Below are positions 14,827-57,835 of a DNA stretch of 64,000 nt, piece by piece. A program made the translations under genes and the position numbers. The first letter of the stretch is position 1; each line of letters starts with the position of its first letter. The DNA comes from Escherichia phage E26, in the sequence record MN655998.1; one strand, 5' to 3'. The notes beneath the pieces are model-generated. The model searched no databases, was not told the DNA's origin, and saw only the letters and a program-made list of their open reading frames with translations.

Positions 14827-16227
14827 ATGGCAAACAATACTATTAACCATGTAAAAGACGATGCTCAATACGTCAAGTTTAACCCTGTAAATGATTGGCC
14901 TCAAAGCATTACCAACGTACAAGCGGCTTTAGCCGCTATTAATGGCTTTGCCGTAAATGGATTACCGGACGCTACGGAAGATACAGCCGGGATCGCTGCA
15001 ATCGCAACTCAGGAAGAAGTAAACGACGGGACAGTAGACAATAAGATCGTGACTCCAAAAACACTGGCTGTTAAAATGTCACGTCCAGATGCCACAAAAG
15101 AAGTAAAAGGCATTACCCGATTTGCCACGATGGAAGAATCGCTGCAAGAGAGCAACGAGAACATAGCAATCGGTCCAGACACACTAAACCATTACTTCAC
15201 CACTAAAAAGGCGTCAGAGAGCGTTCAGGGGACTATTAAGATATGTTCTCTTGAGGCGGCAAAGATTGGCAGTGATGACACAATGGCAGTAACACCGAAA
15301 AAGATGCACACTGCCATTGCACAGATTGTACCTGGATTAATTCCAGATCAAAACACAGCAACCGAAAGCGCACAGGGTTTAGTTCAGTTAGCAACCAATG
15401 CGCAAGTTTTACAAGGCCAGATTCGAGAAGGTTTTGCAATTAGTCCTTATGCATTTGCAAATGCTCGCGCCAATGAGAATCAGGCGGGTACTGTTAAGAT
15501 CGCCAGTCAGTCACAGATGAATGCTGGTTCAGATGATACTGTAGTTGTTTCTGCTAAGAAGTTTGCAAGCACTAAGGCAACAACGTCTCAATACGGTATT
15601 GTTAAACTACGAGACACCGTGGGAAGTGAGGCTAACGCTGCACTATCAGCAAATGCTAAGGTTCTTCCTAGCACTGGCGGTACGGTAAGCGGAAACGTCT
15701 ATAAAGGTTCAAACTCAGACGGCAACCAGTTTGTTACTAAAAATGAATTAGCGAATCACGCAATGCCAATTGGTGGTATTATCCTTTCTGGATTCAATGC
15801 CGATCGAGGTGACTTTCTGATCTGTAATGGTCGTTCGCTGAATAAAAATCAATATCCGCAATTATTTTCTGCGATTGGTTATACCTTTGGTGGTTCAGGT
15901 GACAATTTTAACATTCCTGATATGCGCGGTTTAGTTGCTCGTGGTTGCGATCATGGAAGAAACCTTGATCCAGGTCGTCGATTTGGTTCTTATCAAGAAG
16001 ACGCAATGCAGAGAATTACTGGTAAATTCCCTGTAGCTGACCGCTGGCGCGGTTGGTATGGTGGAGCATTTACTGCACAGCGCGGTCAATGGAGCACGAA
16101 CTATAAAAACGGTGGTGGTGATGATTGGGGTACTACTGTTAACTTTGACTCAGGAAGATCCGTAAGAACGGCTAACGAGACTCGCGTCAAGAGTCTGGCA
16201 TTAAACTATATCATAAGGGTGCGCTAA
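14827..16227 (+). CDS. 12: short tail fiber protein gp12
   Basis: 466 aa; repeated G(T)VKI..(G/A)SDDT..V..KK N-terminal repeats and C-terminal LNYIIRV as in T4 gp12. Confidence 0.9.
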   Translation: MANNTINHVKDDAQYVKFNPVNDWPQSITNVQAALAAINGFAVNGLPDATEDTAGIAAIATQEEVNDGTVDNKIVTPKTLAVKMSRPDATKEVKGITRFATMEESLQESNENIAIGPDTLNHYFTTKKASESVQGTIKICSLEAAKIGSDDTMAVTPKKMHTAIAQIVPGLIPDQNTATESAQGLVQLATNAQVLQGQIREGFAISPYAFANARANENQAGTVKIASQSQMNAGSDDTVVVSAKKFASTKATTSQYGIVKLRDTVGSEANAALSANAKVLPSTGGTVSGNVYKGSNSDGNQFVTKNELANHAMPIGGIILSGFNADRGDFLICNGRSLNKNQYPQLFSAIGYTFGGSGDNFNIPDMRGLVARGCDHGRNLDPGRRFGSYQEDAMQRITGKFPVADRWRGWYGGAFTAQRGQWSTNYKNGGGDDWGTTVNFDSGRSVRTANETRVKSLALNYIIRVR

Positions 16228-17996
16228 TGATTGAACAATTAAACATCCACGAGATCCCACATGTTGACGGTGTACCAAGCGAAGGACAGCACCGTATTAA
16301 CTGGATCAAGAATGGCGAATGTTTAAGCGCAGCAACGACACAGACTGGCAATGACGGGACGCTTAACCGCGCCCCTGTTGCAATTCAAGAAAACGTTGCA
16401 CGCGTAAACGAAAACGCAAAATCAACCGTCGCTAAAGTTAACGAGGTTGTAACGGCGGTTAACGATATTAAAACAACTTTAGGGGTAATTTCTGACGGAA
16501 GTATCATTGATGTGGTTAACCAGACTGTCGCAAAAGTTGAATCCGTCGAAGAGAACTTAGGAGAAACAGCAAGAACTCTGCAAACAACGGTAGACGCTGT
16601 GTCAGAACTTAACATCAAGATTGGTGATCGCCCCGCTGCCGATCCGAGCACAAGAACAATCTATGATGACATTTCTTTCATCAAACAAGAAATGGGTTCT
16701 TATCCTAACTTTAATATCAATGGTTCCCCTGATGCTGGCAGTTCCGGTTCTGGCATCAAATACCGAGTTATTCAGAATACCGCAGCATTAAATGACCACG
16801 GTCGCCGAATCGTTCAGCTTGAAAACGACTGGCAAGATTCTGACGTAGGCGAGTTAACAAGACAAGTTAACAAAATGCGCAGTGAGATCGGAGACACGTC
16901 TCTTGCCACACAAGAAAATGTGTATGTTCGTCTCCGCACCAACGCAAGAAACATTGCTAACTTATCAAACGAAGTTCTAGAAGTCAAGAAAGCAATTTTG
17001 TTTGATTCAATCCCTGATATCGGGACTAAAGTCACTACGCTGGGAACTAATTATGAACGTCTAAACAATGATGTTAATGGTGTAGATTCCGGTATTCGTC
17101 CTCGTCTTCTGGCTGTCGAGAATAAGATCGGAACGCCTCAATCGGCTGGAAGCATTGATTATCGATTAACCAACACAGAGCGAGAATTTTTAGATCTTAA
17201 ACAGGTTGTTGGTGTAAGCGGTGCTGACGGTTTGCGCGGTGAAGTTGTTCGACTTTCCAATGAGATTGGCACTGACAGCGATCGACATACTCTAGCCGGA
17301 CGTATTAAAGTTGTAGAAAACACTCAGGGTCGGTTAGAAGCAAGCGTACAGGACATGGAACAGATTGTAGGTGATCGCGAATCAGGTTTGACCGCTGGCG
17401 TTATTAAACTATCAAGTGATATCTATGGCGATGATGGTTCAGAAGATCCATTTACTCAGAAAGGCGTGATTAAAATCGTCAAAGAGCTACAAACATCTAA
17501 CGGAAACAAAGTAGATGATGTACCTGATGACGGTTTTCATTATCTGCGTAAGCACGGCGAATGGGTGCAAGTTGCATATGCTGCTGGAGCATTTAAAAAT
17601 ACCGCAGATATTACGGTTGAACTTGACGAACAGGATGTTTATAAACCGATTCCGCTAAACGATATGACCGAAGAAGTTCCTGCGCGTGGAATGGTTAAGA
17701 GCGAATCTCTTGTTACGGTTAACGACAAAGGCTTATTCCGTTGTGATTTCCGTTGTTCTGTAAATGCGGCACATAACGCTACTTTCGTAGTCGGTATTGC
17801 TAAAAATGGTCTGATTGTACATGAGGTACGAAATGGTCATTATGGAGCTGATGATTTAATTAGCTATTCTACCAGTGCTTTCCTAAATATTGAAAAGGGC
17901 GACCGGATCGATATTCGCATTAAGGGCGTATCCGAAGAAGCATTAGCGCAACAGCTACAAATTAAAGAGTTCCTCTTTGGGATTTCTCCGGTATAA
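16227..17996 (+). CDS. wac: fibritin (whisker) with internal foldon-like motif and extra C-terminal domain
   Basis: 589 aa; N-terminus PHVDGVPSEGQHRINWIKNGE as T4 Wac; foldon-like FHYLRKHGEWVQV is followed by about 140 further residues. Confidence 0.85.
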   Translation: MIEQLNIHEIPHVDGVPSEGQHRINWIKNGECLSAATTQTGNDGTLNRAPVAIQENVARVNENAKSTVAKVNEVVTAVNDIKTTLGVISDGSIIDVVNQTVAKVESVEENLGETARTLQTTVDAVSELNIKIGDRPAADPSTRTIYDDISFIKQEMGSYPNFNINGSPDAGSSGSGIKYRVIQNTAALNDHGRRIVQLENDWQDSDVGELTRQVNKMRSEIGDTSLATQENVYVRLRTNARNIANLSNEVLEVKKAILFDSIPDIGTKVTTLGTNYERLNNDVNGVDSGIRPRLLAVENKIGTPQSAGSIDYRLTNTEREFLDLKQVVGVSGADGLRGEVVRLSNEIGTDSDRHTLAGRIKVVENTQGRLEASVQDMEQIVGDRESGLTAGVIKLSSDIYGDDGSEDPFTQKGVIKIVKELQTSNGNKVDDVPDDGFHYLRKHGEWVQVAYAAGAFKNTADITVELDEQDVYKPIPLNDMTEEVPARGMVKSESLVTVNDKGLFRCDFRCSVNAAHNATFVVGIAKNGLIVHEVRNGHYGADDLISYSTSAFLNIEKGDRIDIRIKGVSEEALAQQLQIKEFLFGISPV

Positions 17997-18042: not shown

Positions 18043-18975
18043 ATGTCAGGATATGTAACCAATAACCCAAGAGAATTAAAAGACGCTATTCTGCGTCGTT
18101 TAGGCGCACCAGTAATTAACGTAGAAGTAACAGAAGACCAGATTTACGATTGTATTCAGAGAGCATTAGAACTCTATGGGGAATATCATTTCGATGGTGT
18201 GAATAAAGGATATAAAGTATTTCGTGTCAGTGCAGAGCAAGCGCAACATGGGGTATTTGATTTAAGCGATTCTGGAGTATTCGCAGTAACTAAAATAATT
18301 AGAACAAACGTAGGTAGCGCGGCTACGATGGATGGCACTGCCGTTTATCCGTGGTTTACTGACTTTCTGTTGGGTTTAGCGGGTGTAAATGGCGGTTTAG
18401 GATCTGGCTGTAGTAAATTTTATGGACCAAATGCAATGGGCGGTGATCTGGGATATTTCGAACAGCTTATGAGCTATCGAGCCACTATGCAAAATATGCT
18501 TAATCCGCTGCCAGATTATTGGTATAATAGCGCAAACGGACAACTTAAGATCACAGGAAACTTCCGAGAAGGCGATCTCATTGTTGTTGAATTGTATGTT
18601 AAAAGTTATGTTGATGTACCGGACATGATGGGGGCGGTTGCTGGTTATGCTCATGCGGGAGGATGTTCTACCGCTGGCGGGATTAGCGCCGTTTATGATA
18701 ATCCAACCGCCGGATTGAGCGGTATTGTTGCTGGCATGGGTCCGATCAGCGAGAACAAACAGGGCGCATATAATAACCGCTGGGTTAAAGACTGCGCGAC
18801 CGCGTTTACTCGTGAGCTATGGGGGCAGATCTTAGCTAAACATCAAGGGTTGCAATTACCAGGTGGTGTAACAGTTGATGGTGTCAGAATCATCGAAGAA
18901 GCACGCGCGGATATTGAGAAATTACGACAAGAATTGGAATTACTAGACCCACCGTTTGGGATCATTATGGTTTAA
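18043..18975 (+). CDS. 13: neck protein gp13
   Basis: 310 aa; T4 gp13-like ([29 protein letters not shown]). Confidence 0.88.
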
Positions 18976-19036
18976 TGTTTACAATCCGTTCTCGTTTATG
19001 TATAATCAAGGCGAGAACGGATATAGGAGTTTAACA

Positions 19037-19933
19037 ATGAATCATTATGTGTATAAAATAACCAACAAATTAAATGGTAAAATCTATATCGGCGTCCGTA
19101 GCTGTGATTGCGATATCGACAAAGATCCTTATATGGGTAGTGGGGTATTAATTAAAAAAGCTATCCATACTCATGGAGTTGAAAATTTTCACAAAGAAAT
19201 TCTCGAAACATTTGAAACAAGAGAAGAAGCTAATCAAGAAGAAGCCAGATTAGTGACACTAGATTTTGTTAACCGACAAGACACATACAATCTAATTGAA
19301 GGTGGTCTGGGTGGTTGCTACTGGAATACATTTTCAGAAGAAAAAAAGGAAGAGATCAAGAACAAATTAAGACAACATAAACCAGATCCAGAACAATTAA
19401 GAAAATTACATGAATCAAATAGAGGCGTTCCGCGTTCGGAAGAGACTAAATTGAAAGTTAGCCGAGCAAATAAAGGAAGAATCCACACGGAGCAGTCAAG
19501 AAAAAACATGTCCGAAGGGCGAAAAGGTATGGTGTTTTCAGAAGAACACAGAAAAAATATATCAAAAGCAAATGTAGGACGTGTACATTCTCCAGAAACA
19601 TTGGAAAAAATAAGATTAGGGAATTTAGGAAAAAAATTAAAACCAGAAACAATAGAAAAACTAAGAGAGGTTGCCAAGAATCGTCCTCCTGTCTCAGAAG
19701 AAACAAGAAGAAAACTATCAGAGGCAGCAAAGAAACAAATAAGAAACTTCGGGGATAAAATAAGTAAAGGGAAAATAGATAAACCTATATCAACGAGCAA
19801 AACAGTGTATGCGGAAGGTGTTGAATATCCTTCTGTTAGTGTTTGTGCAAGGGCATATGGGATTTCAAACACATCAATATTGAAGAGAATTAATTCAACG
19901 TCAGAAAAATGGAAGGAGTTTTATTATGTTTGA
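19037..19933 (+). CDS. GIY-YIG homing endonuclease (Seg-like)
   Basis: 298 aa from ATG with AGGAG RBS; GIY-YIG core [14 protein letters not shown]; repeated NUMOD3-like basic motifs; C-terminal HTH-like tail. ORF-track start at 18956 rejected (inside gp13). Confidence 0.8.
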
Positions 19934-20666
19934 TAATACCCTATTTGCTCGCCTTGAATCGCAAAAGGATTATGAGAATACACGACAATCAGAGATTCTT
20001 AATCCTTATGTGAACTTTCACAAATATACAAATACTCAGACGTTAGCCGACGTTATGGTCGCCGAAGCTATTCAGATGCGAGGTGTAGAATTATATTACA
20101 TCCCTCGTGAATTTGTCAAACCAGACATGATCTTTGGCGAGGATGTTCAAAGCAAATTTACTAAAGCATGGAAATTTGCTGCTTATATTAACTCATTTGA
20201 TGGGTATGAAGGCGCGGGTAATTTCTTCTCTAGTTTCGGTTATCAAGCCAATGATGAACTAACTTTTACGGTTAATCCTAACCTATTCAAACATCAAGTA
20301 GATGATCAAGAGCCAAAATCAGGTGACTTGATTTATATTCCAATGAGTAATGATTTATTTGAAATCAATTACGTCGAGCCATATCAGCCGTTTTTTCAGG
20401 CTGGCAAAAATGCCATGCGTAAAATTATTGCAGAGAAATTCGTATATAGCGGCGAGGAATTGCGACCAGAATTACAACGCAATGAGGGAATTAATGTTGA
20501 TGAGTTTGCGGATCTGGATCTTGCACCGATCACTAATCTGGACGGGTTAACAGATATCAACTTAGATCAGTACAAAGAAGATAAGCAATTCAGAAGCGAA
20601 GGACAAGATTTTATTGATCCGTTTGATCCTATTAATGGCAAGGGTTCACCTTTCGCCGATTTTTGA
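19926..20666 (+). CDS. 14: neck protein gp14
   Basis: 246 aa; position and size as T4 gp14. Confidence 0.8.
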
Positions 20667-20692
20667 TAAATACTCATAAACAAGGGGGTCAA

Positions 20693-21539: not shown

Positions 21540-23860
<2,321 letters not shown>

Positions 23861-53687: not shown

Positions 53688-53935
53688 GCTGCCCCCATTG
53701 GTTTGATAGTAACAGAATCTAAAAGACCTTTGTTAGCCAGTTCGCGGCAAGTTTTCAGATCCGCAACTTCCCAGCCAGCCGCAATCAGGTTATCAATCAG
53801 GCTGTTAGCAATTTCTTCGCTCATGAAAGAGCACTGTTTGCCGATGGTGTAGCGTACACGCTGTAATTTCAGTTTACGGAAGCCTTTAACGTTCAGGTCT
53901 TTAGCGATTTTCTTTGCGGTTTCGATGTTAGCCAT
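53684..53935 (-). CDS. hypothetical protein (83 aa), first gene of the operon
   Basis: ORF with cassette leader RBS. Confidence 0.5.
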   Translation of the reverse strand: MANIETAKKIAKDLNVKGFRKLKLQRVRYTIGKQCSFMSEEIANSLIDNLIAAGWEVADLKTCRELANKGLLDSVTIKPMGAA

Positions 53936-54004
53936 TGTTTGATTCTCCTAAGTGGTATCTCGTCTTGATGGTTGTATTGTAGGGGAGTTATCCTCCCCTG
54001 TCAA
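53936..54004 (-). promoter_or_regulatory. PeSL-like cassette c
   Basis: TTGACA, spacer GGGGAGGATAACTCCCC (inverted repeat), TACAAT, leader. Confidence 0.55.
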
Positions 54005-54018
54005 CACTTTTTATAAAA

Positions 54019-54186
54019 TTATTTGTTAATTTCCGGTGCGTTGCTTGGATAGTAACCTTCTTTAACTCCGAGGTATTTCGCAACCATCCCTACAATCTTC
54101 TGTGCTACTACAATGTCAAATTTCAGATAATCTTCACCGTAGGTTTCAATGATATATGCTTCACATGCTGCTTTAGTCTCGAACAT
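54019..54186 (-). CDS. small protein (55 aa), paralog copy 1
   Basis: MFETKAACEAYIIETYGEDYLKFDIVVAQKIVGMVAKYLGVKEGYYPSNAPEINK; near-identical second copy at 57287..57454. Confidence 0.6.
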   Translation of the reverse strand: MFETKAACEAYIIETYGEDYLKFDIVVAQKIVGMVAKYLGVKEGYYPSNAPEINK

Positions 54187-54249
54187 TTTGATTCTCCTAT
54201 TTCGTTTCGGTATGTGTGTATTATAGGGGATCTCCCGATCCCCGTCAAC
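54187..54249 (-). promoter_or_regulatory. PeSL-like cassette d
   Basis: TTGACG-like -35, spacer GGGGATCGGGAGATCCCC, TATAAT, leader. Confidence 0.55.
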
Positions 54250-54263
54250 AACTTTTTTTAAAA

Positions 54264-54545
54264 TTATTCGTGATTAGTTTCGATGTTGTGCATTTTGCAC
54301 CAGTTCAGCCAATCGCCCAGTTCTTGATAGTTGATGCTTTTATCTGCTGCCATCGTTTTTGTCTTGATACCCATATGTGCGTTATGAGTAAGCATTTTTA
54401 CAGTGAACTCGATTTTATCGCCTTTAGCTTTAACATCAACCAGTTTGGTCCACTGGCTACCAGCACCGCGAATGTTCATGCCAACGATGTTTCCGATGTA
54501 TGCTTCTTTGTTTTTCAGGATTTCGGTTGCTTTGATGAATTTCAT
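54264..54545 (-). CDS. hypothetical protein (93 aa)
   Basis: ORF with cassette leader RBS. Confidence 0.5.
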   Translation of the reverse strand: MKFIKATEILKNKEAYIGNIVGMNIRGAGSQWTKLVDVKAKGDKIEFTVKMLTHNAHMGIKTKTMAADKSINYQELGDWLNWCKMHNIETNHE

Positions 54546-54607
54546 TTTTGATTCTCCAGTTCGTTTCGGTATGGGTGTATTATGCTATGTTCTTACTTTG
54601 GTGTCAA
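54546..54607 (-). promoter_or_regulatory. PeSL-like cassette e
   Basis: TTGACA, 17 nt, CATAAT, leader; no spacer palindrome in this copy. Confidence 0.5.
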
Positions 54608-54615
54608 CAACTTTT

Positions 54616-54885
54616 TTAGATATTTTCAGAAATAAATTTTAAAACTTGACGTAAATGTTTCTCATCTTTGATAGTCGCCGGAAGTTCTTCTTTTACTTCC
54701 TGTGCAAGATAGATATTTCCGTTCCAAGTGAAAGATCCGTCTTCGTTTACGCGATAGCTGAACATCCACTCGCAATCATTTTCGATTTCATATACACACA
54801 GAAGAGTGTAATCTTCAAAGCTATTGAGTTCAAGGTCGAAGCCGTGACGTTTTGCAAAGTTGGTAGTGGTTTTAGTCAGTGCCAT
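54616..54885 (-). CDS. hypothetical protein (89 aa)
   Basis: ORF with cassette leader RBS. Confidence 0.5.
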   Translation of the reverse strand: MALTKTTTNFAKRHGFDLELNSFEDYTLLCVYEIENDCEWMFSYRVNEDGSFTWNGNIYLAQEVKEELPATIKDEKHLRQVLKFISENI

Positions 54886-54954
54886 TGTTTGATTCTCCTA
54901 AGTGGTATCTCGTTTCGATGTGTGTATTATGCTATAGGCGTGTTCTGGTGTCAA
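54886..54954 (-). promoter_or_regulatory. PeSL-like cassette f
   Basis: TTGACA, 17 nt, CATAAT, leader. Confidence 0.5.
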
Positions 54955-54978
54955 TTCTTTTTTTAAAATTTTATGCAA

Positions 54979-55004
54979 TAAAAAAGCCGACGCTAAGGTC
55001 GGCT
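54979..55004 (-). terminator. rho-independent terminator after paralog A1
   Basis: minus strand AGCCGAC-CUUAGC-GUCGGCU then UUUUUU. Confidence 0.6.
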
Positions 55005-55011
55005 AATAAAA

Positions 55012-55320
55012 TCATTTAGACAAATAATCATTCTGTGCAATCCGGTCAGCATGTTCCGGCGTTACGTCAATTGCAATCACTTTAACGCGTGCTTTCTTGC
55101 GACCTGGGTTTTCTCGTAGCCAGTGCGTGTGACCGTACAAATTTTTATACTTTGATGCTTCTTCGAAGGTACGGATCGGACCTGGGTAATCAGCGTAAAG
55201 GATCTCTAGATCTTCGGTGATGTAAAAATATACATCGTAATTGCTGTTCTCTAGCTTAAGCAGAGACTTTCGGAACATTGGGAGATTTTCGCGGGTAAAT
55301 TCAAAGATATTATCTTTCAT
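55012..55320 (-). CDS. HxHW-family paralog A1
   Basis: 102 aa from ATG (MKDN, GAGGA RBS); GHTHWL then VKVIAIDV. Confidence 0.55.
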   Translation of the reverse strand: MKDNIFEFTRENLPMFRKSLLKLENSNYDVYFYITEDLEILYADYPGPIRTFEEASKYKNLYGHTHWLRENPGRKKARVKVIAIDVTPEHADRIAQNDYLSK

Positions 55321-55344
55321 AGTATTATCCTCAATAGTTGGATG

Positions 55345-55367
55345 AAAAGGGGGGCTTAACGCCCCCA
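55345..55367 (-). terminator. rho-independent terminator (GGGGGCGUUAAGCCCCC family)
   Basis: same hairpin as at 51562..51582 and, on the other strand, after wac. Confidence 0.6.
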
Positions 55368-55371
55368 TATA

Positions 55372-55659
55372 TTAAAACAGTCCTTCCTGTACACCGTAAT
55401 AGAGTTCGTCGCTGATAATTTCATTAATGCGACGGTGTGCATATTCCTGATTTGCGAAGTTGTCAGCAAGTTCTACTTTAGTTTCTCCGTCATGAGTCCA
55501 TTTAGTGATAACTTTACCATCTGCAAATTTGAAGTTGAACTCTTTAGCTACCGCATCGCGTACCAGACGTGCAAACTTATTGTTGCGGATTGCATTGTCG
55601 GTTTCGTGTGCAGCGTGAGCGAATTTGTTAACTTTCAGAGTGATAGTAATGTATGCCAT
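55372..55659 (-). CDS. small protein, family C paralog 1
   Basis: 95 aa; RLVRDAVAKEFNFK matches REVRKALAKEFNTK in 58672..58983. Confidence 0.5.
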   Translation of the reverse strand: MAYITITLKVNKFAHAAHETDNAIRNNKFARLVRDAVAKEFNFKFADGKVITKWTHDGETKVELADNFANQEYAHRRINEIISDELYYGVQEGLF

Positions 55660-55734
55660 AATTTGATTCTCCTAGTTAGAAAGTGTATCTCGTTTCGATG
55701 GGTGTATTATGCTATACACCCGACCTTATGTCAA
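55660..55734 (-). promoter_or_regulatory. PeSL-like cassette g
   Basis: TTGACA, 17 nt, CATAAT flanked by GGGTGTAT..ATACACCC, leader. Confidence 0.55.
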
Positions 55735-55740
55735 CACTTT

Positions 55741-56019
55741 TTATAAAATAATTTTTTGATATTTTTCTATGATGTTCGTGTAAGTCACATCAACCGCTAG
55801 CACCGTTGCTTCGAATCCACCGTTTAGCCAATGGCTATGGTCATGATCGTGAAAGAAACCAAGACCAGTACGAAGACCTTCTTTATATTCTGCGCGTACA
55901 TTTAGATCATCATCGATAAACAGATAAAACCATGAATTTTTACTAGGATTGATGATACAACCTTTCAGATTAGGGAGAATATCACGACTAAGAATAAACT
56001 TATCACCTACTTTGAACAT
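55741..56019 (-). CDS. HxHW-family paralog A2
   Basis: 92 aa from ATG (MFKVGDKF, GAGGA RBS); HSHWL then VLAVDV. Confidence 0.55.
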   Translation of the reverse strand: MFKVGDKFILSRDILPNLKGCIINPSKNSWFYLFIDDDLNVRAEYKEGLRTGLGFFHDHDHSHWLNGGFEATVLAVDVTYTNIIEKYQKIIL

Positions 56020-56033
56020 AATATTTTCCTCAC

Positions 56034-56342
56034 TTATAAAGTTTGACCGTTGTTTTTCGCGTAATGCTGAATGCGTGCTTGATCTGCTTCCGCTGGTGAT
56101 AGATTCCATGCAACCACTACAACTTCTGACGCATCGTCATCCGTTTTTGATACCCAATGATTATGATTCATACAATTGTTTGCTATCGCGTGAGCAAATG
56201 ATTTCATCACTGGAGATGTATAATCATAGTAACGGATTTTCAGATTTTCATCAACATACAAGTAGATCGTATAAGGTTTATATTCAGTAACCAGTAACAG
56301 ACAGTTACGCAATTCTGGGAAAATCTTTTTAGTTAATTTCAT
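56034..56342 (-). CDS. HxHW-family paralog A3
   Basis: 102 aa from ATG (MKLTKK, GAGGA RBS); HNHWV then VVVVAWNL. Confidence 0.5.
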   Translation of the reverse strand: MKLTKKIFPELRNCLLLVTEYKPYTIYLYVDENLKIRYYDYTSPVMKSFAHAIANNCMNHNHWVSKTDDDASEVVVVAWNLSPAEADQARIQHYAKNNGQTL

Positions 56343-56343
56343 T

Positions 56344-56553
56344 TTATAATCCTCGGTCGCGGCTATAGTACACGGTACGCCATACAATTTCATGTTTCGT
56401 GTCGCTCCAGCACACGATCTCATTTACTCTTAAATCTTTGTTATCAACAAAAGATGAACATTGTGACGTTTCTTTCATCATTTTATCTGCTGTTTTCTCA
56501 TCAAATACAGCACAGATTTCTTTATACACTCGATAATCTTTAAACTTGCTCAT
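56344..56553 (-). CDS. small protein, family B tandem paralog 1
   Basis: 69 aa; MSKFKDYRVYKEICAVFDEKTADKMMKETSQCSSF against MSKFKDYKAYQQILRVYEPEFAEKMMEDASKCPSF in the neighbour. Confidence 0.55.
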   Translation of the reverse strand: MSKFKDYRVYKEICAVFDEKTADKMMKETSQCSSFVDNKDLRVNEIVCWSDTKHEIVWRTVYYSRDRGL

Positions 56554-56555
56554 AA

Positions 56556-56765
56556 TTAACACCAATCAAGAGTTTTTGAAAACACATCTATCCATTGTTG
56601 AGTATATGCGGTTTCTTTCCATGATACAATACCGGTAGAATAATGGTTTTTGTTTCCAGAAAAGGACGGGCATTTTGATGCATCTTCCATCATCTTTTCG
56701 GCGAACTCTGGTTCGTATACTCGCAAGATCTGTTGATATGCTTTGTAGTCTTTAAATTTGCTCAT
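56556..56765 (-). CDS. small protein, family B tandem paralog 2
   Basis: 69 aa; see paralog 1. Confidence 0.55.
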   Translation of the reverse strand: MSKFKDYKAYQQILRVYEPEFAEKMMEDASKCPSFSGNKNHYSTGIVSWKETAYTQQWIDVFSKTLDWC

Positions 56766-57030
56766 AATCGTTAACTACCTTATCAGCTTCTTTTATTGTT
56801 TTTACATCAACTGCGATAACCCGTAAAGGTTCGTCGTGGTTCCACCAATGATCGTGAATATCAGCTTGTGATTTATCACCAAAGGAATCACGAATATCAT
56901 TTTTACATTTATAGCTAATGTGACCGTCATAGTCAACATAAAGGTAATTATCGAAAATCGGCGTTTTTAAGATCATACCGAAAAATCTTTCTTTGTGTGT
57001 CTTATCCAGCGTTGCAGTAATTCGCATCAT
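56752..57030 (-). CDS. HxHW-family paralog A4
   Basis: 92 aa; HDHWW then VIAVDV; GAGGA RBS. Confidence 0.55.
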   Translation of the reverse strand: MMRITATLDKTHKERFFGMILKTPIFDNYLYVDYDGHISYKCKNDIRDSFGDKSQADIHDHWWNHDEPLRVIAVDVKTIKEADKVVNDYEQI

Positions 57031-57042
57031 AATATATTCCTC

Positions 57043-57222
57043 TTAGAAAGGGATGGTCATTTCTTGAGCTTGTACATTCTCGTTAGGATTAAACTTCATC
57101 CAACCGATATTGTCTACCAGCATATGTACATTTTTATCATACCCTACGTGAGTAGTCAACACTAAATGTGCTTTACCTTCAACGATGATTTCCATGTACT
57201 TCTGAACTTCGATAGCTTTCAT
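57043..57222 (-). CDS. hypothetical small protein (59 aa)
   Basis: below ORF-track cutoff; cassette leader RBS. Confidence 0.45.
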   Translation of the reverse strand: MKAIEVQKYMEIIVEGKAHLVLTTHVGYDKNVHMLVDNIGWMKFNPNENVQAQEMTIPF

Positions 57223-57283
57223 TTTGATTCTCCGTTTGTTGTCTTGATGGGAGTATCTTACTACTCCCTTTAATCATTGTCAA
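57223..57283 (-). promoter_or_regulatory. PeSL-like cassette h
   Basis: TTGACA followed by GGGAGTA..TACTCCC inverted repeat around a weak -10, leader. Confidence 0.45.
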
Positions 57284-57286
57284 CTA

Positions 57287-57454
57287 TTATTTGTTAATTT
57301 CCGGTGCGTTGCTTGGATAGTAACCTTCTTTAACACCCAGATATTTTGCAACCATTCCGGTGATCTTCTGTGCTACTACGATATCGAATTTCAGGTAGTC
57401 TTCACCGTGGGTTGCTACAATGTATGCTTCGCATTCTGCTTTAGTCTGGAACAT
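57287..57454 (-). CDS. small protein (55 aa), paralog copy 2
   Basis: MFQTKAECEAYIVATHGEDYLKFDIVVAQKITGMVAKYLGVKEGYYPSNAPEINK; last ~47 nt identical to copy 1. Confidence 0.6.
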   Translation of the reverse strand: MFQTKAECEAYIVATHGEDYLKFDIVVAQKITGMVAKYLGVKEGYYPSNAPEINK

Positions 57455-57518
57455 TTTTGATTCTCCTATATCTCGTTGGTATGTGTGTATTATAGGGGAT
57501 CTCCCGATCCCCTGTCAA
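57455..57518 (-). promoter_or_regulatory. PeSL-like cassette i
   Basis: TTGACA, spacer GGGGATCGGGAGATCCCC, TATAAT, leader. Confidence 0.6.
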
Positions 57519-57526
57519 CAACTTTT

Positions 57527-57835
57527 TTATTCTTCATCTTCATTTTTATCTTTATATGCGTACTTCATAAATTTGTCTGCTACTTTGTCCGCGTTTTCAG
57601 GTTCTACGTCTGACGCTAGGACAACAGCTAGTTCGGTTTTGTCGTTTCCATCATACCAATGATTATGAGTGTCGTTTTCTTTGATATAAAACGAATCATT
57701 TGGAGTTGTGCGACAATATACGTCTAAATTCCCATCGATATAAAAGATCCAATCCGAATACAAAATGATTGTTTTAGCCAGATTTTTATTGTCTCTTACA
57801 AAAGGTTCCGCGACAAATAGCTTAGTTTGTTCCAT
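57527..57835 (-). CDS. HxHW-family paralog A5
   Basis: 102 aa from ATG (MEQTK, GAGGA RBS); HNHWY then VVLASDV. Confidence 0.5.
   Translation of the reverse strand: MEQTKLFVAEPFVRDNKNLAKTIILYSDWIFYIDGNLDVYCRTTPNDSFYIKENDTHNHWYDGNDKTELAVVLASDVEPENADKVADKFMKYAYKDKNEDEE

Follow-up and report, generated by a model that had tools for sequence, protein, structure and literature searches.

Sequence, profile and fold comparisons confirm that the open reading frame between neck genes 13 and 14 in the window (the whole 64-kb stretch of DNA that was analysed, which is from a Krischvirus, or RB49-like, phage) can be assigned to the family of free-standing Seg-type GIY-YIG homing endonuclease genes. The gene probably came to lie in the 13/14 spacer by intronless homing with co-conversion of its flanks, a reading that we draw from the distribution of the gene and from the divergence around it. 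An intact homing endonuclease gene at 13/14 is a correct and ordinary finding for T4-type phages, and it leaves the current understanding of such elements unchanged. The 298-amino acid protein is 100% identical to QHB48747.1 of Escherichia phage E26, deposited as a "hypothetical protein"; that annotation is here corrected to Seg-like homing endonuclease. The protein is at most 44% identical to sequences beyond its own cluster and thereby extends the Seg family by a distinct allele.

Gene structure and overlap with gene 14

19037..19933, + strand: Seg-like GIY-YIG homing endonuclease gene, 298 amino acids plus stop (open reading frame, Shine-Dalgarno, Pfam, PHROG)
19025..19029, + strand: Shine-Dalgarno AGGAG, 7 nt 5' of the endonuclease ATG
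19926..19933, + strand: endonuclease TGA/gp14 ATG overlap, ATGTTTGA, read directly

The reading frame runs from the ATG at 19037 to the TGA at 19931-19933, and the gp14 ATG is at 19926, giving an overlap of 8 nt. Longer forms can be called from TTG 18956 or from ATG 18998, the latter being the 311-amino acid database form; 19037 is the best start because the longer calls begin within the promoter and stem-loop described below and because the homologues begin at the methionine equivalent to 19037. An RNA that starts 3' of the -10 box is predicted to be unstructured around the Shine-Dalgarno sequence (dG -3.4, z 0.09). The surrounding genes encode fibritin (wac), gp13 (PHROG 211; PF26809), gp14 (PF11649, 1.7e-101) and gp15 (PF16724). 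Both gp13, which stops at 18975, and gp14 are full length and collinear with RB49. The earlier note had proposed a free-standing gene between 13 and 14 whose stop codon overlaps the gp14 start; PHROG and Pfam identify the neighbours as gp13 and gp14, and both proposals stand. The cassette has a G+C content of 34.8%, lower than that of gene 13 (44.1%) or of the window (40.6%).

There is no T4-type late promoter TATAAATA between 11488 and 23853, and consequently nothing to indicate that the endonuclease gene contains a late promoter serving gp14. A candidate explanation of the gp14 Asn3-to-Asp change, that it was forced by the overlapping stop codon, was rejected because the RB49 sequence ATGTTTAAC also yields a stop codon (TAA) in that frame.

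Domain organization and catalytic residues

19037..19321, + strand: GIY-YIG catalytic domain, aa 1-95, with YVY (4-6), YIG (17-19), E69 and N85 (Foldseek, profile)
19334..19741, + strand: eight in-register 17-residue NUMOD3-like helix units, aa 100-235 (Pfam, AF2, repeat register)
19781..19930, + strand: C-terminal I-TevI-like helix-turn-helix, aa 249-298 (PF20987 sub-threshold, Foldseek, AF2)

The modular plan, as modelled, is I-TevI-like, with a GIY-YIG nuclease at the N-terminus and a helix-turn-helix at the C-terminus joined by a long NUMOD3 linker. The protein matches PHROG 314 'homing endonuclease' (8.7e-62) and Pfam SegE_GIY-YIG PF19835 (34.2 bits, cut-off 25), and PF01541 falls below its cut-off in the 298-amino acid protein (19.4 versus 22.6 bits). 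The AF2 model has a mean pLDDT of 89.7, with values of 93-98 over aa 1-90, and its catalytic domain is matched by Foldseek to I-TevI 1MK0/1LN0 with a probability of 1.0 and a TM(target) of 0.64. A single-sequence phmmer search of the PDB gave no match; I-TevI was reached only by the fold search and by the profile of 54 homologues (1LN0 at E 3.6e-8).

Four catalytic domain residues, Y6, Y17, G19 and N85, are invariant in 54/54 homologues, and E69 is present in 53 of them. In the profile alignment Y6 and Y17 align with Y6 and Y17 of I-TevI, and E69 and N85 with the I-TevI ...ERENF... and ...GYN... segments (E75 and N90). The I-TevI R27 segment is an insertion relative to the profile and has no alignable equivalent in the 298-amino acid protein, where the helix bearing Arg27 is replaced by a DxYMGSG loop. 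The window protein has R21, in a column occupied across the homologues by H (33), R (10) or T (8); RB3 SegH, which is annotated as a homing endonuclease, has H at this column.

The Pfam NUMOD3 match (PF07460) scores 34.6 bits against a cut-off of 20.4 (1.8e-8), and the helices of this region in the AF2 model return every 17 residues. The eight units are predicted to make up the linker and minor-groove-binding region; the linker lacks a zinc finger, there being no Cys between aa 95 and 269. The C-terminal tail is weak by sequence (PF20987 I-TevI_DNA-bd, E 8.5e-4, 19.6 bits, under the cut-off of 27) and clear by fold (Foldseek 1I3J_A, probability 1.0), and AF2 models aa 257-297 as strand-strand-helix-helix-strand. 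PF20987 is on record for P0003, a metagenomic allele of the same site, and the C-terminus of the window protein is 53-56% identical to those of the Phi1 allele and of P0002, a second metagenomic allele. The GIY-YIG N-terminus, the NUMOD3-like repeats and the HTH-like tail read by the earlier note are all recovered, and the catalytic residues, whose absence would have spoken against an endonuclease, are in place.

Occupancy of the 13/14 site

Among 57 Krischvirus records, from a collection that does not include E26, the 13/14 site is empty in 41 and holds one of three other Seg-like genes in the remaining 16 (7 Makalu-type, 6 Phi1-type including Phi1 "SegC", and 3 G37-3-type); the window allele is found in 0/57. 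Empty sites, among them those of RB49, JSE and SSG23, consist of a 36-nt spacer, the sequence of which is identical in these three, where it was read. Comparison with these insert-free relatives, as the earlier note had suggested, indicates that the endonuclease gene of the window replaces the 36-nt spacer. P0002 (44% identity) and P0003 (40%) are likewise flanked by genes 13 and 14. The ATGTTTGA overlap with gp14 recurs in the Phi1 and P0002 alleles, and the P0003 overlap is also of 8 nt, with the sequence ATGCTTAA. The alleles vary in length from the 298 aa of the window/E26 protein to 304 (P0002), 271 (Makalu), 263 (P0003), 214 (G37-3) and 194 aa (Phi1). Relatives from IMG/VR (L016-L024, 28-55% identity) are uninformative on the 13/14 site, as none lies beside gp13/gp14 homologues.

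The empty spacer of RB49 contains a GGGGG...CCCCC stem-loop, and three different endonuclease genes have been inserted at, in or over this stem-loop. JSE has an endonuclease gene one spacer further along, between genes 14 and 15. Endonuclease genes have landed repeatedly at the neck-gene junction of RB49-like phages. The alleles at this one site, with few to eight NUMOD3 units, form a natural series for relating linker length to the distance between binding and cleavage.

Conservation of the cassette and divergence of its flanks

18802..19963, + strand: haplotype block in the window and four other carriers, 2-5 SNPs (mismatch maps versus L005-L008)
18924..18975, + strand: last 52 nt of gene 13, a cluster of allele-specific, mostly synonymous substitutions (comparison with JSE and RB49)
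19926..19943, + strand: first 18 nt of gene 14, 5 substitutions versus the empty-site phages RB49, SSG23 and JSE

The cassette is 99.5-99.8% identical in four other carriers (L005-L008), whereas their adjoining essential genes differ by 2-3.5%. This amounts to 2-5 differences in the 950-nt cassette versus 45-79 in 2508 nt of genes 13, 14 and 15, and divergence of the cassette between carriers is 5-14 times lower than that of the essential genes next to it. Most flanking-gene comparisons are 96.5-98% identical, with gene 13 at 99.9-100% in L006 and L008 (Fisher p 1e-4 to 6e-8). The carrier backgrounds vary, wac being only 79% identical in L005, and the block at 18802-19963 appears to be a unit that travels together. 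At least four other assemblies have the endonuclease reading frame at full length, as the window does, and the SNPs among carriers are 7 synonymous and 1 nonsynonymous; the intact reading frame shows signs of purifying selection.

Where genes 13 and 14 adjoin the cassette, divergence from the empty-site phages climbs to 20-35%, over the end of the former and the first 18 nt of the latter. Against JSE there are 18 mismatches in the last 52 nt of gene 13 and 27 in the 881 nt upstream (Fisher p 7e-13); against RB49 there are 41 in the last 200 nt and 34 in 733 nt (p 4e-11). In gene 14 the first 18 nt hold 5 substitutions, versus 14 in 723 nt (p 4e-5). The equivalent gene 14 tract of Phi1 extends for approximately 440 nt at approximately 22% divergence and then stops. 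These jumps in divergence are read as gene-conversion tracts and not as selection on the neck proteins, and they fit co-conversion of flanking markers with the endonuclease gene, as it would be recognized from sequence comparison. Together with the empty sites, the conserved cassette and the diverged tracts beside it are signs of mobility in a gene that is not universal, and both bear out the earlier note.

The diverged part of gene 13 at approximately 18777-18920 is found also in empty-site JSE and is therefore not strictly linked to the endonuclease. Import of the whole 200-nt gene 13 tract with the endonuclease is weakened as an explanation, since the tract is mostly common to JSE (91% identity) and to PHB13, which has another allele; only its last 50 nt or so is specific to the window allele. 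The P0002 and Phi1 alleles adjoin an RB49-type gene 13 end, from which it follows that the substitution clusters are not required for self-immunity. A proposal that the length of the NUMOD3 linker sets the reach of the gene 13 cluster was rejected, because the long P0002 allele lies beside an unaltered RB49-type gene 13 end. The candidate target region to which these comparisons point is the 13/14 spacer with approximately the final 50 nt of gene 13 and the initial 20 nt or so of gene 14, and a target in gene 13 or 14, as proposed earlier, is plausible.

A putative promoter and a stem-loop upstream of the endonuclease gene

18978..19006, + strand: putative sigma70-type promoter TTTACA-17-TATAAT (consensus scan, 11/12 positions)
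18984..19022, + strand: stem-loop AUCCGUUCUCG...CGAGAACGGAU enclosing the -10 box (dG -20.1 kcal/mol, z -5.6)
18955..19140, + strand: 186-nt block nearly identical to the P0003 allele, comprising the gene 13 end, the promoter/stem-loop and the first 35 codons (alignment, dot plots)

In Arbiol et al. 2010 (PMC2839356), the PeSL of RB49 and Phi1 is described as a stop codon, a sigma70-like promoter, a stem-loop over the -10 box, a Shine-Dalgarno sequence and an ATG, and the stems as often G-tract/C-tract, repeated across the genome and usually found in hyperplastic regions. The predicted upstream element of the window fits this order, with a sigma70-like promoter and stem-loop between a stop codon and the SD/ATG. 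Like a PeSL, it adjoins a gene that differs between close relatives and has recombination breakpoints in its vicinity; unlike a typical PeSL, it lies in a conserved virion module, its stem arms (CCGTTCTCG/CGAGAACGG) are without a G-tract or C-tract, and it is single rather than one of a flanking pair. At the corresponding position the Phi1 allele reads TTGACT-18-TATGAT. The stem-loop is kept in the Phi1 and P0002 alleles, and in Phi1 the two outer pairs are changed on both sides (CC/GG to AT/AT). A more extended RNA helix, in which the end of gene 13 pairs with the endonuclease AUG, was set aside, as it is not conserved in P0002 and Phi1, which have different gene 13 ends.

An alternative to homing is that the cassette moves, or has moved, mainly by PeSL-type shuffling, through ordinary homologous recombination at the promoter/stem-loop and in the flanking neck genes, with the endonuclease a passenger whose activity is not needed. 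The match to the published PeSL definition is one reason to consider it. Another is the 186-nt block, nearly exact in the P0003 allele that is otherwise approximately 40% identical: its end marks a recombination breakpoint after the YMGSG motif, and the block shows that recombination has taken place at the patch. A third is the stem-loop of the RB49 empty spacer, which resembles the PeSL ones and is the place where the three endonuclease genes lie. However, the stem-loop is present in a single copy in the 64-kb window, with none between the endonuclease gene and gp14, and a PeSL-like element on the left side only makes the route of excision between two PeSLs as a mini-circle inapplicable. The stem is also not of the described type, no further copy of the stem-loop/promoter turned up when viral contigs were scanned for its exact pattern, and an intact nuclease under purifying selection with conserved catalytic residues is unexpected for a passenger. 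We regard shuffling of a passenger gene as improbable.

A model for the mobility of the cassette

Intronless homing with co-conversion, which has been shown experimentally for T4 SegE, SegF, SegG and SegB (Edgell et al. 2010, PMC2988022), is the reading we favor for the window cassette. During co-infection with a relative that lacks the endonuclease gene, early expression of the enzyme would be driven by the sigma70-type promoter of the cassette itself. The helix-turn-helix and NUMOD3 units would bind the intact 13/14 junction and the nuclease would cut nearby, the carrier's own site having been destroyed by the insertion itself. The phage recombination machinery would then mend the break with the carrier genome as template and, in doing so, copy in the cassette plus the neighbouring gene 13 and gene 14 ends. 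The stem-loop that encloses the -10 box probably shields the cassette from gene 13 transcripts, and may also act as a conserved patch for recombination between alleles.

We suggest tentatively, and with far less confidence than homing itself, that multiple alleles contest the Krischvirus 13/14 junction, which would then be more than a homing site that is either filled or empty. On this view six or more diverged Seg-like alleles occupy it, at three insertion points that fall within 36 bp around the GGGGG...CCCCC stem-loop, with swaps of sub-domains via the shared promoter/stem-loop block and possible mutual cutting of alleles. I-HmuI and I-HmuII cut one another's alleles in SPO1/SP82. Mutual cutting would explain the substitution clusters at the gene 13/14 ends, which are unneeded for immunity to cutting of the empty site.

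Slightly less probable again than shuffling is that the gene is retained for a benefit to the phage, as a weapon that cuts competitor genomes (marker exclusion) or as a DNA-binding regulator, and not for its own spread, or that it is an inactive relic in the course of being lost. The clusters unneeded for empty-site immunity would agree with a benefit, and competition between carriers could account for the multiple alleles of the site; however, exclusion is a known by-product of homing (PMC2988022), and the observations do not separate a weapon or regulator from homing. A relic would be consistent with the canonical Arg not being identifiable, with a truncated G37-3-type copy in phage Brandy and with two members of the window protein's own cluster (P0127/P0128 and P0130) that are frameshifted copies; decay thus also occurs in the cluster, unless the frameshifts are assembly errors. 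Against a relic are the full-length reading frame in the window and at least four assemblies, its 7:1 ratio of synonymous changes, and the intact Y6, Y17, E69 and N85.

It is very improbable that the gene is ancestral to Krischvirus at 13/14 and was inherited vertically with repeated deletion: although the 8-nt gp14 overlap common to the window, Phi1, P0002 and P0003 alleles (with ATGTTTGA in the first three) and the related C-terminus of those three suggest a single old insertion for the overlap-type lineage, the cassette is much less diverged than the essential genes beside it, the carrier backgrounds differ, PHB13 has the closest flank match (96.5%) yet carries a different allele, and the empty sites have one identical spacer instead of deletion scars.

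Comparison with known systems

The nearest system by position is the Phi1 'SegC' (ABR24660.1, with copies in ECD7, kvi and phiS), which occupies the same 13/14 insertion site in place of the spacer and has the same overlap with gp14. The two share the same kind of upstream sigma70 promoter and stem-loop, with a stem core of GTTCTCG/CGAGAAC in both, and a related C-terminal helix-turn-helix (56% identity), and the last 35 nt are near-identical. They differ in that Phi1 SegC is only 40% identical overall, has far fewer NUMOD3 units, which accounts for its 194 versus 298 aa, and is flanked by an RB49-type gene 13 end and the long diverged gene 14 tract. The site in Phi1 has been annotated 'segC' since 2007-2010, a name chosen for its resemblance to T4, from which a common target does not follow; segC of T4 lies between 5.1 and 5.3 (PMC2988022). 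The earlier note mentions neither this annotation nor the alternative alleles of the locus, nor the promoter/stem-loop of the cassette. The PeSL papers (Arbiol et al. 2010, PMC2839356; Comeau et al. 2014) list Phi1 segC as a unique gene, and the passages searched in them make no connection between it and a PeSL.

The closest named relative is RB3 SegH (ABI48949.1), an annotated homing endonuclease that is 35% identical over its full length (E 5e-41). It shares the GIY-YIG/NUMOD3/C-terminal HTH plan, the DxYMGSG and KW..W/F tail motifs, and a free-standing gene with ends that overlap its neighbours. SegH reportedly has experimentally demonstrated activity (Sandegren et al. 2005, as cited in PMC2988022). 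It lies between nrdD and nrdG in Tequatrovirus and not in the neck module, and the targets of the two enzymes must therefore differ.

I-TevI, encoded by the T4 td intron, is the best structural match for both ends of the model (1MK0/1LN0 and 1I3J). The window gene, in contrast, is not within an intron or intein; its product is missing the linker zinc finger that is the distance determinant in I-TevI, and has eight NUMOD3-like units in place of the one minor-groove helix.

T4 itself has no endonuclease gene at 13/14 (Table 1, PMC2988022), and seven of its free-standing endonuclease genes (segC, segF, segG and four mob genes) form cassettes that lack a promoter (PMC2988022), unlike the window cassette with its putative sigma70-type promoter. 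The likeness to T4 SegA-G is in the free-standing GIY-YIG genes in spacers of conserved genes, the patchy distribution and the co-conversion of flanking markers (PMC2988022). In these comparative signatures the window cassette matches T4 Seg intronless homing, as far as can be judged from sequence.

The endonuclease gene and its neighbours

Direct reading bore out the start, the stop and the 298-aa length of the ORF at 19037-19933, which the earlier note had placed between the neck genes 13 and 14 with its stop overlapping the gp14 ATG; the overlap lies within ATGTTTGA.

Features of the 13/14 region in the window
16227-17996: wac (fibritin); Pfam/PHROG
18043-18975: gp13; Pfam/PHROG
18978-19006: predicted sigma70-type promoter TTTACA-17-TATAAT, 11/12 consensus positions, between the gene 13 stop and the Shine-Dalgarno sequence; consensus scan
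18984-19022: stem-loop enclosing the -10 box, dG -20.1 kcal/mol, z -5.6
7 nt 5' of the endonuclease ATG, plus strand: Shine-Dalgarno AGGAG; direct reading
19037 (ATG) to 19931-19933 (TGA), plus strand: endonuclease ORF, 298 aa; direct reading
19926-20666: gp14; Pfam/PHROG

The neighbours also include gp15, gp16 and gp17. The sequences flanking the gene share about 94% identity with RB49 and related phages, so the window is assigned to Krischvirus. The encoded protein has above-threshold Pfam matches to NUMOD3 (34.6 bits) and SegE_GIY-YIG (34.2 bits), matches PHROG 314 "homing endonuclease" (8.7e-62), and matches QHB48747.1 of Escherichia phage E26, deposited as a "hypothetical protein", with 100% identity. 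The other members of its 13-member protein cluster all come from Logan and ENA assemblies. The nearest sequence outside this cluster, among 5.8 billion, is 44% identical, and the best match in the phage collection searched, which does not contain E26, is 37.5% identical. Two IMG/VR contigs with distant relatives (L018 and L022) each have three separate endonuclease matches within about 4-5 kb; these are clusters of Seg-like paralogues in unrelated contexts.

The large terminase gp17 has 607 aa in the window (22034-23857) and in the remaining carriers of the window allele; in the carrier assembly L006 (Logan DRR831663, 8998-11814) the gene product is 938 aa long and gives a faint LAGLIDADG match, the extra length being probably due to an intein or to a fused endonuclease. 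The roughly 4-kb stretch 53688-57764 of the window holds no ORF of at least 130 aa on either strand; small ORFs or RNA genes may lie there.

Architecture of the protein

The protein was modelled with AlphaFold2 from 54 homologues (mean pLDDT 89.7).

Domains of the endonuclease
aa 1-95: nuclease domain, strand-strand-helix-strand-helix; AlphaFold2 model
aa 100-235: linker, eight NUMOD3-like units in register with short helices every 17 residues; AlphaFold2 model and repeat register
aa 257-297: C-terminal module, strand-strand-helix-helix-strand; AlphaFold2 model

The best Foldseek matches in the PDB include the I-TevI catalytic domain (1MK0/1LN0), matched by aa 1-95 with probability 1.0 and a target TM of 0.64, the I-TevI DNA-binding domain (1I3J, also with probability 1.0) and I-HmuI, and the family profile matches the I-TevI catalytic domain with an E value of 3.6e-8. 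The GIY-YIG N-terminus, NUMOD3-like repeats and C-terminal HTH-like tail proposed in the earlier note all stand. The catalytic residues are present on alignment: Y6, Y17, G19 and N85 show no variation in the 54 sequences, E69 is kept in 53 of them, and the conserved residues align with I-TevI Y6, Y17, E75 and N90 in the profile alignment. The gene thus encodes an intact, conserved and modular GIY-YIG/NUMOD3/HTH protein. Where I-TevI has the helix that carries Arg27, this family has a conserved DxYMGSG loop; position 21 is H, R or T, with no assignable Arg27 equivalent. RB3 SegH, an annotated homing endonuclease that is 35% identical over the whole length, has His at this position. There is no cysteine in the whole linker sequence, and the endonuclease therefore lacks an I-TevI-type zinc finger.

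A multi-allelic site between genes 13 and 14

The gene is not universal in relatives. Classed by the distance from gene 13 start to gene 14 end, 57 Krischvirus records fall into four classes and reveal a precise presence/absence polymorphism at 13/14.

Classes of the 13/14 site in Krischvirus
About 1710 nt: empty; 41 records, including RB49, JSE, GEC-3S and SSG23
2579 nt: 271-aa Seg-like gene; 7 records (Makalu_001/002, KFS-EC (2 records), PHB13, MIZ4/5)
About 2317 nt: 194-aa Phi1-type gene; 6 records (Phi1 (2), ECD7 (2), kvi, phiS)
About 2328 nt: 214-aa G37-3-type gene; 3 records (G37-3, G5211, Brandy)

None of the 57, a collection outside which E26 falls, has the window allele. Two metagenomic alleles, P0002 (304 aa, 44% identity to the endonuclease) and P0003 (263 aa, 40%), occupy the gp13/gp14 junction too and show the same overlap of 8 nt. 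The empty sites of RB49, SSG23 and JSE (2434-2469 in L004, L013 and L025, respectively) have in common a 36-nt spacer with a GGGGGAGTATTCCCCC stem-loop. This stem-loop resembles promoter-early stem-loops (PeSLs) of the published G-tract/C-tract type, but the spacer has no promoter in these three phages. Insertions occurred at three different points of the spacer, three endonuclease genes having been inserted before the GGGGGAGTATTCCCCC stem-loop, inside its loop or in its place. The Makalu-type gene directly follows the gene 13 stop, with the spacer kept downstream; in the window, Phi1, P0002 and P0003 types the spacer is replaced as far as the gp14 ribosome-binding site.

Some copies are shortened or split, which could be real decay or assembly errors. 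In Brandy (L012 2669-3094) the G37-3-type gene has been shortened to 141 aa. Within the window allele's cluster, where the affected proteins are P0127/P0128 and P0130, the gene is broken into two parts at the A-run near codon 103 on one contig, and another copy has a frameshift near codon 210.

JSE carries a 252-aa Seg-like GIY-YIG gene of the DPYMGSG family between genes 14 and 15 (L025 3251-4006), preceded by a TATAAT-containing stretch, at the site of the window's 26-nt gp14/gp15 spacer (20667-20692). With 13/14 empty and the 14/15 spacer occupied in JSE, the neck module therefore has at least two endonuclease landing sites.

Promoter, stem-loop and exchange between alleles

A transcript starting just 3' of the -10 box is predicted to be unstructured around the Shine-Dalgarno sequence and AUG. 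The Phi1 allele has TTGACT-18-TATGAT and the same stem core as the window, with two outer pairs altered on both sides (CC/GG to AT/AT; dG -18.5). The PeSLs of RB49 and Phi1, for which the published account describes tests of promoter and terminator/attenuator function and proposes a role as mediators of modular shuffling (PMC2839356), have the same arrangement; the window element differs from a typical PeSL in stem composition, location and copy number, with one in the 64-kb window.

The window and P0003 are nearly identical over 18955-19140 (one indel, one mismatch), a block spanning the gene 13 end, the promoter/stem-loop and 35 codons, beyond which identity falls abruptly to about 40% at the protein level. 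P0002 has this block too, less exactly. Segments are therefore exchanged between the alleles, and one breakpoint falls within the nuclease domain, immediately beyond the YMGSG motif. PeSL-type recombination with no need of a nuclease is an unlikely account of how the cassette moves, and it is compatible with homing.

The 9-nt sequence ATCATTATG is directly repeated, once at the gene 13 end (18961-18969) and once in endonuclease codons 2-5 (19041-19049). The repeat is the basis of an outer RNA helix predicted to pair this end of gene 13 with the AUG, and it is shared by the P0003 allele but by neither the P0002 nor the Phi1 allele. A 12/12 sigma70 consensus (TTGACA-18-TATAAT; 20119..20090, minus strand) inside gene 14 points antisense at the endonuclease gene. 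It is kept in RB49-type gene 14 with or without an endonuclease and destroyed in the diverged Phi1/P0002-type tract.

Signs of mobility and a model for homing

The window was compared with the four other assemblies carrying its allele (L005-L008). The 950-nt cassette (18976-19925) has 2-5 differing positions, as against 45-79 of 2508 in genes 13, 14 and 15 (Fisher p 1e-4 to 6e-8), and the block 18802-19963 is common to all five carriers. In L005, wac is only 79% identical to the window and genes 13-16 are 96.5-99% identical, which indicates a mosaic boundary just 5' of gene 13.

Divergence peaks at the gene ends that face the insert. In gene 13, mismatches to RB49 number 41 over the last 200 nt and 34 over the first 733 (p 4e-11); in gene 14 they number 5 over the first 18 nt and 14 over the remaining 723 (p 4e-5). 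Against JSE, gene 13 shows 18/52 in the last 52 nt and 27/881 upstream (p 7e-13); the differences are concentrated at this end because JSE and the window have most of the diverged tract in common. Phi1 gene 14 is about 22% diverged over about 440 nt and then nearly identical. The G+C content is 34.8% in the cassette and 44.1% in gene 13. Taken together, these are the marks that repeated gene conversion around the insert would be expected to leave, and they point to transfer of the gene together with flanking markers. Not all of the diverged stretches are linked to the window allele, and the gene 13 end exists as several recombinant haplotypes across alleles and empty sites.

Among carriers, the endonuclease gene has 7 synonymous SNPs and 1 non-synonymous SNP, a pattern also seen in the adjacent essential genes. 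A role in competition or regulation, or a decaying one, seems slightly less probable again than PeSL-type recombination, and is likewise compatible with homing. Vertical inheritance with repeated loss is highly improbable beside a cassette less diverged than its flanks.

The homing-endonuclease interpretation of the earlier note is supported. By analogy with T4 SegB, SegE, SegF and SegG (PMC2988022), the endonuclease would be made early from the cassette's own promoter, would bind the uninterrupted 13/14 junction in a co-infecting phage that lacks the endonuclease and would introduce a double-strand break nearby. Recombinational repair with the carrier genome as template would then bring in the cassette together with the gene 13 and gene 14 ends. 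Carriers would be immune, since insertion removes the spacer and sets the two flanks about 950 bp apart. The sequence does not fix the exact target; it is common for free-standing endonucleases to cut far from the gene that encodes them (PMC2988022).

Comparison with known systems

Elements of this type are thoroughly known. The seven seg genes of T4 include none at 13/14 (PMC2988022), and a Phi1 "segC" is annotated at this same junction and recorded as a gene absent from RB49 (PMC2839356). The endonuclease adds a new member, hitherto without annotation, to the Seg family at a site where such genes were already known, and only the multi-allelic site and the common promoter/stem-loop block go beyond the routine.
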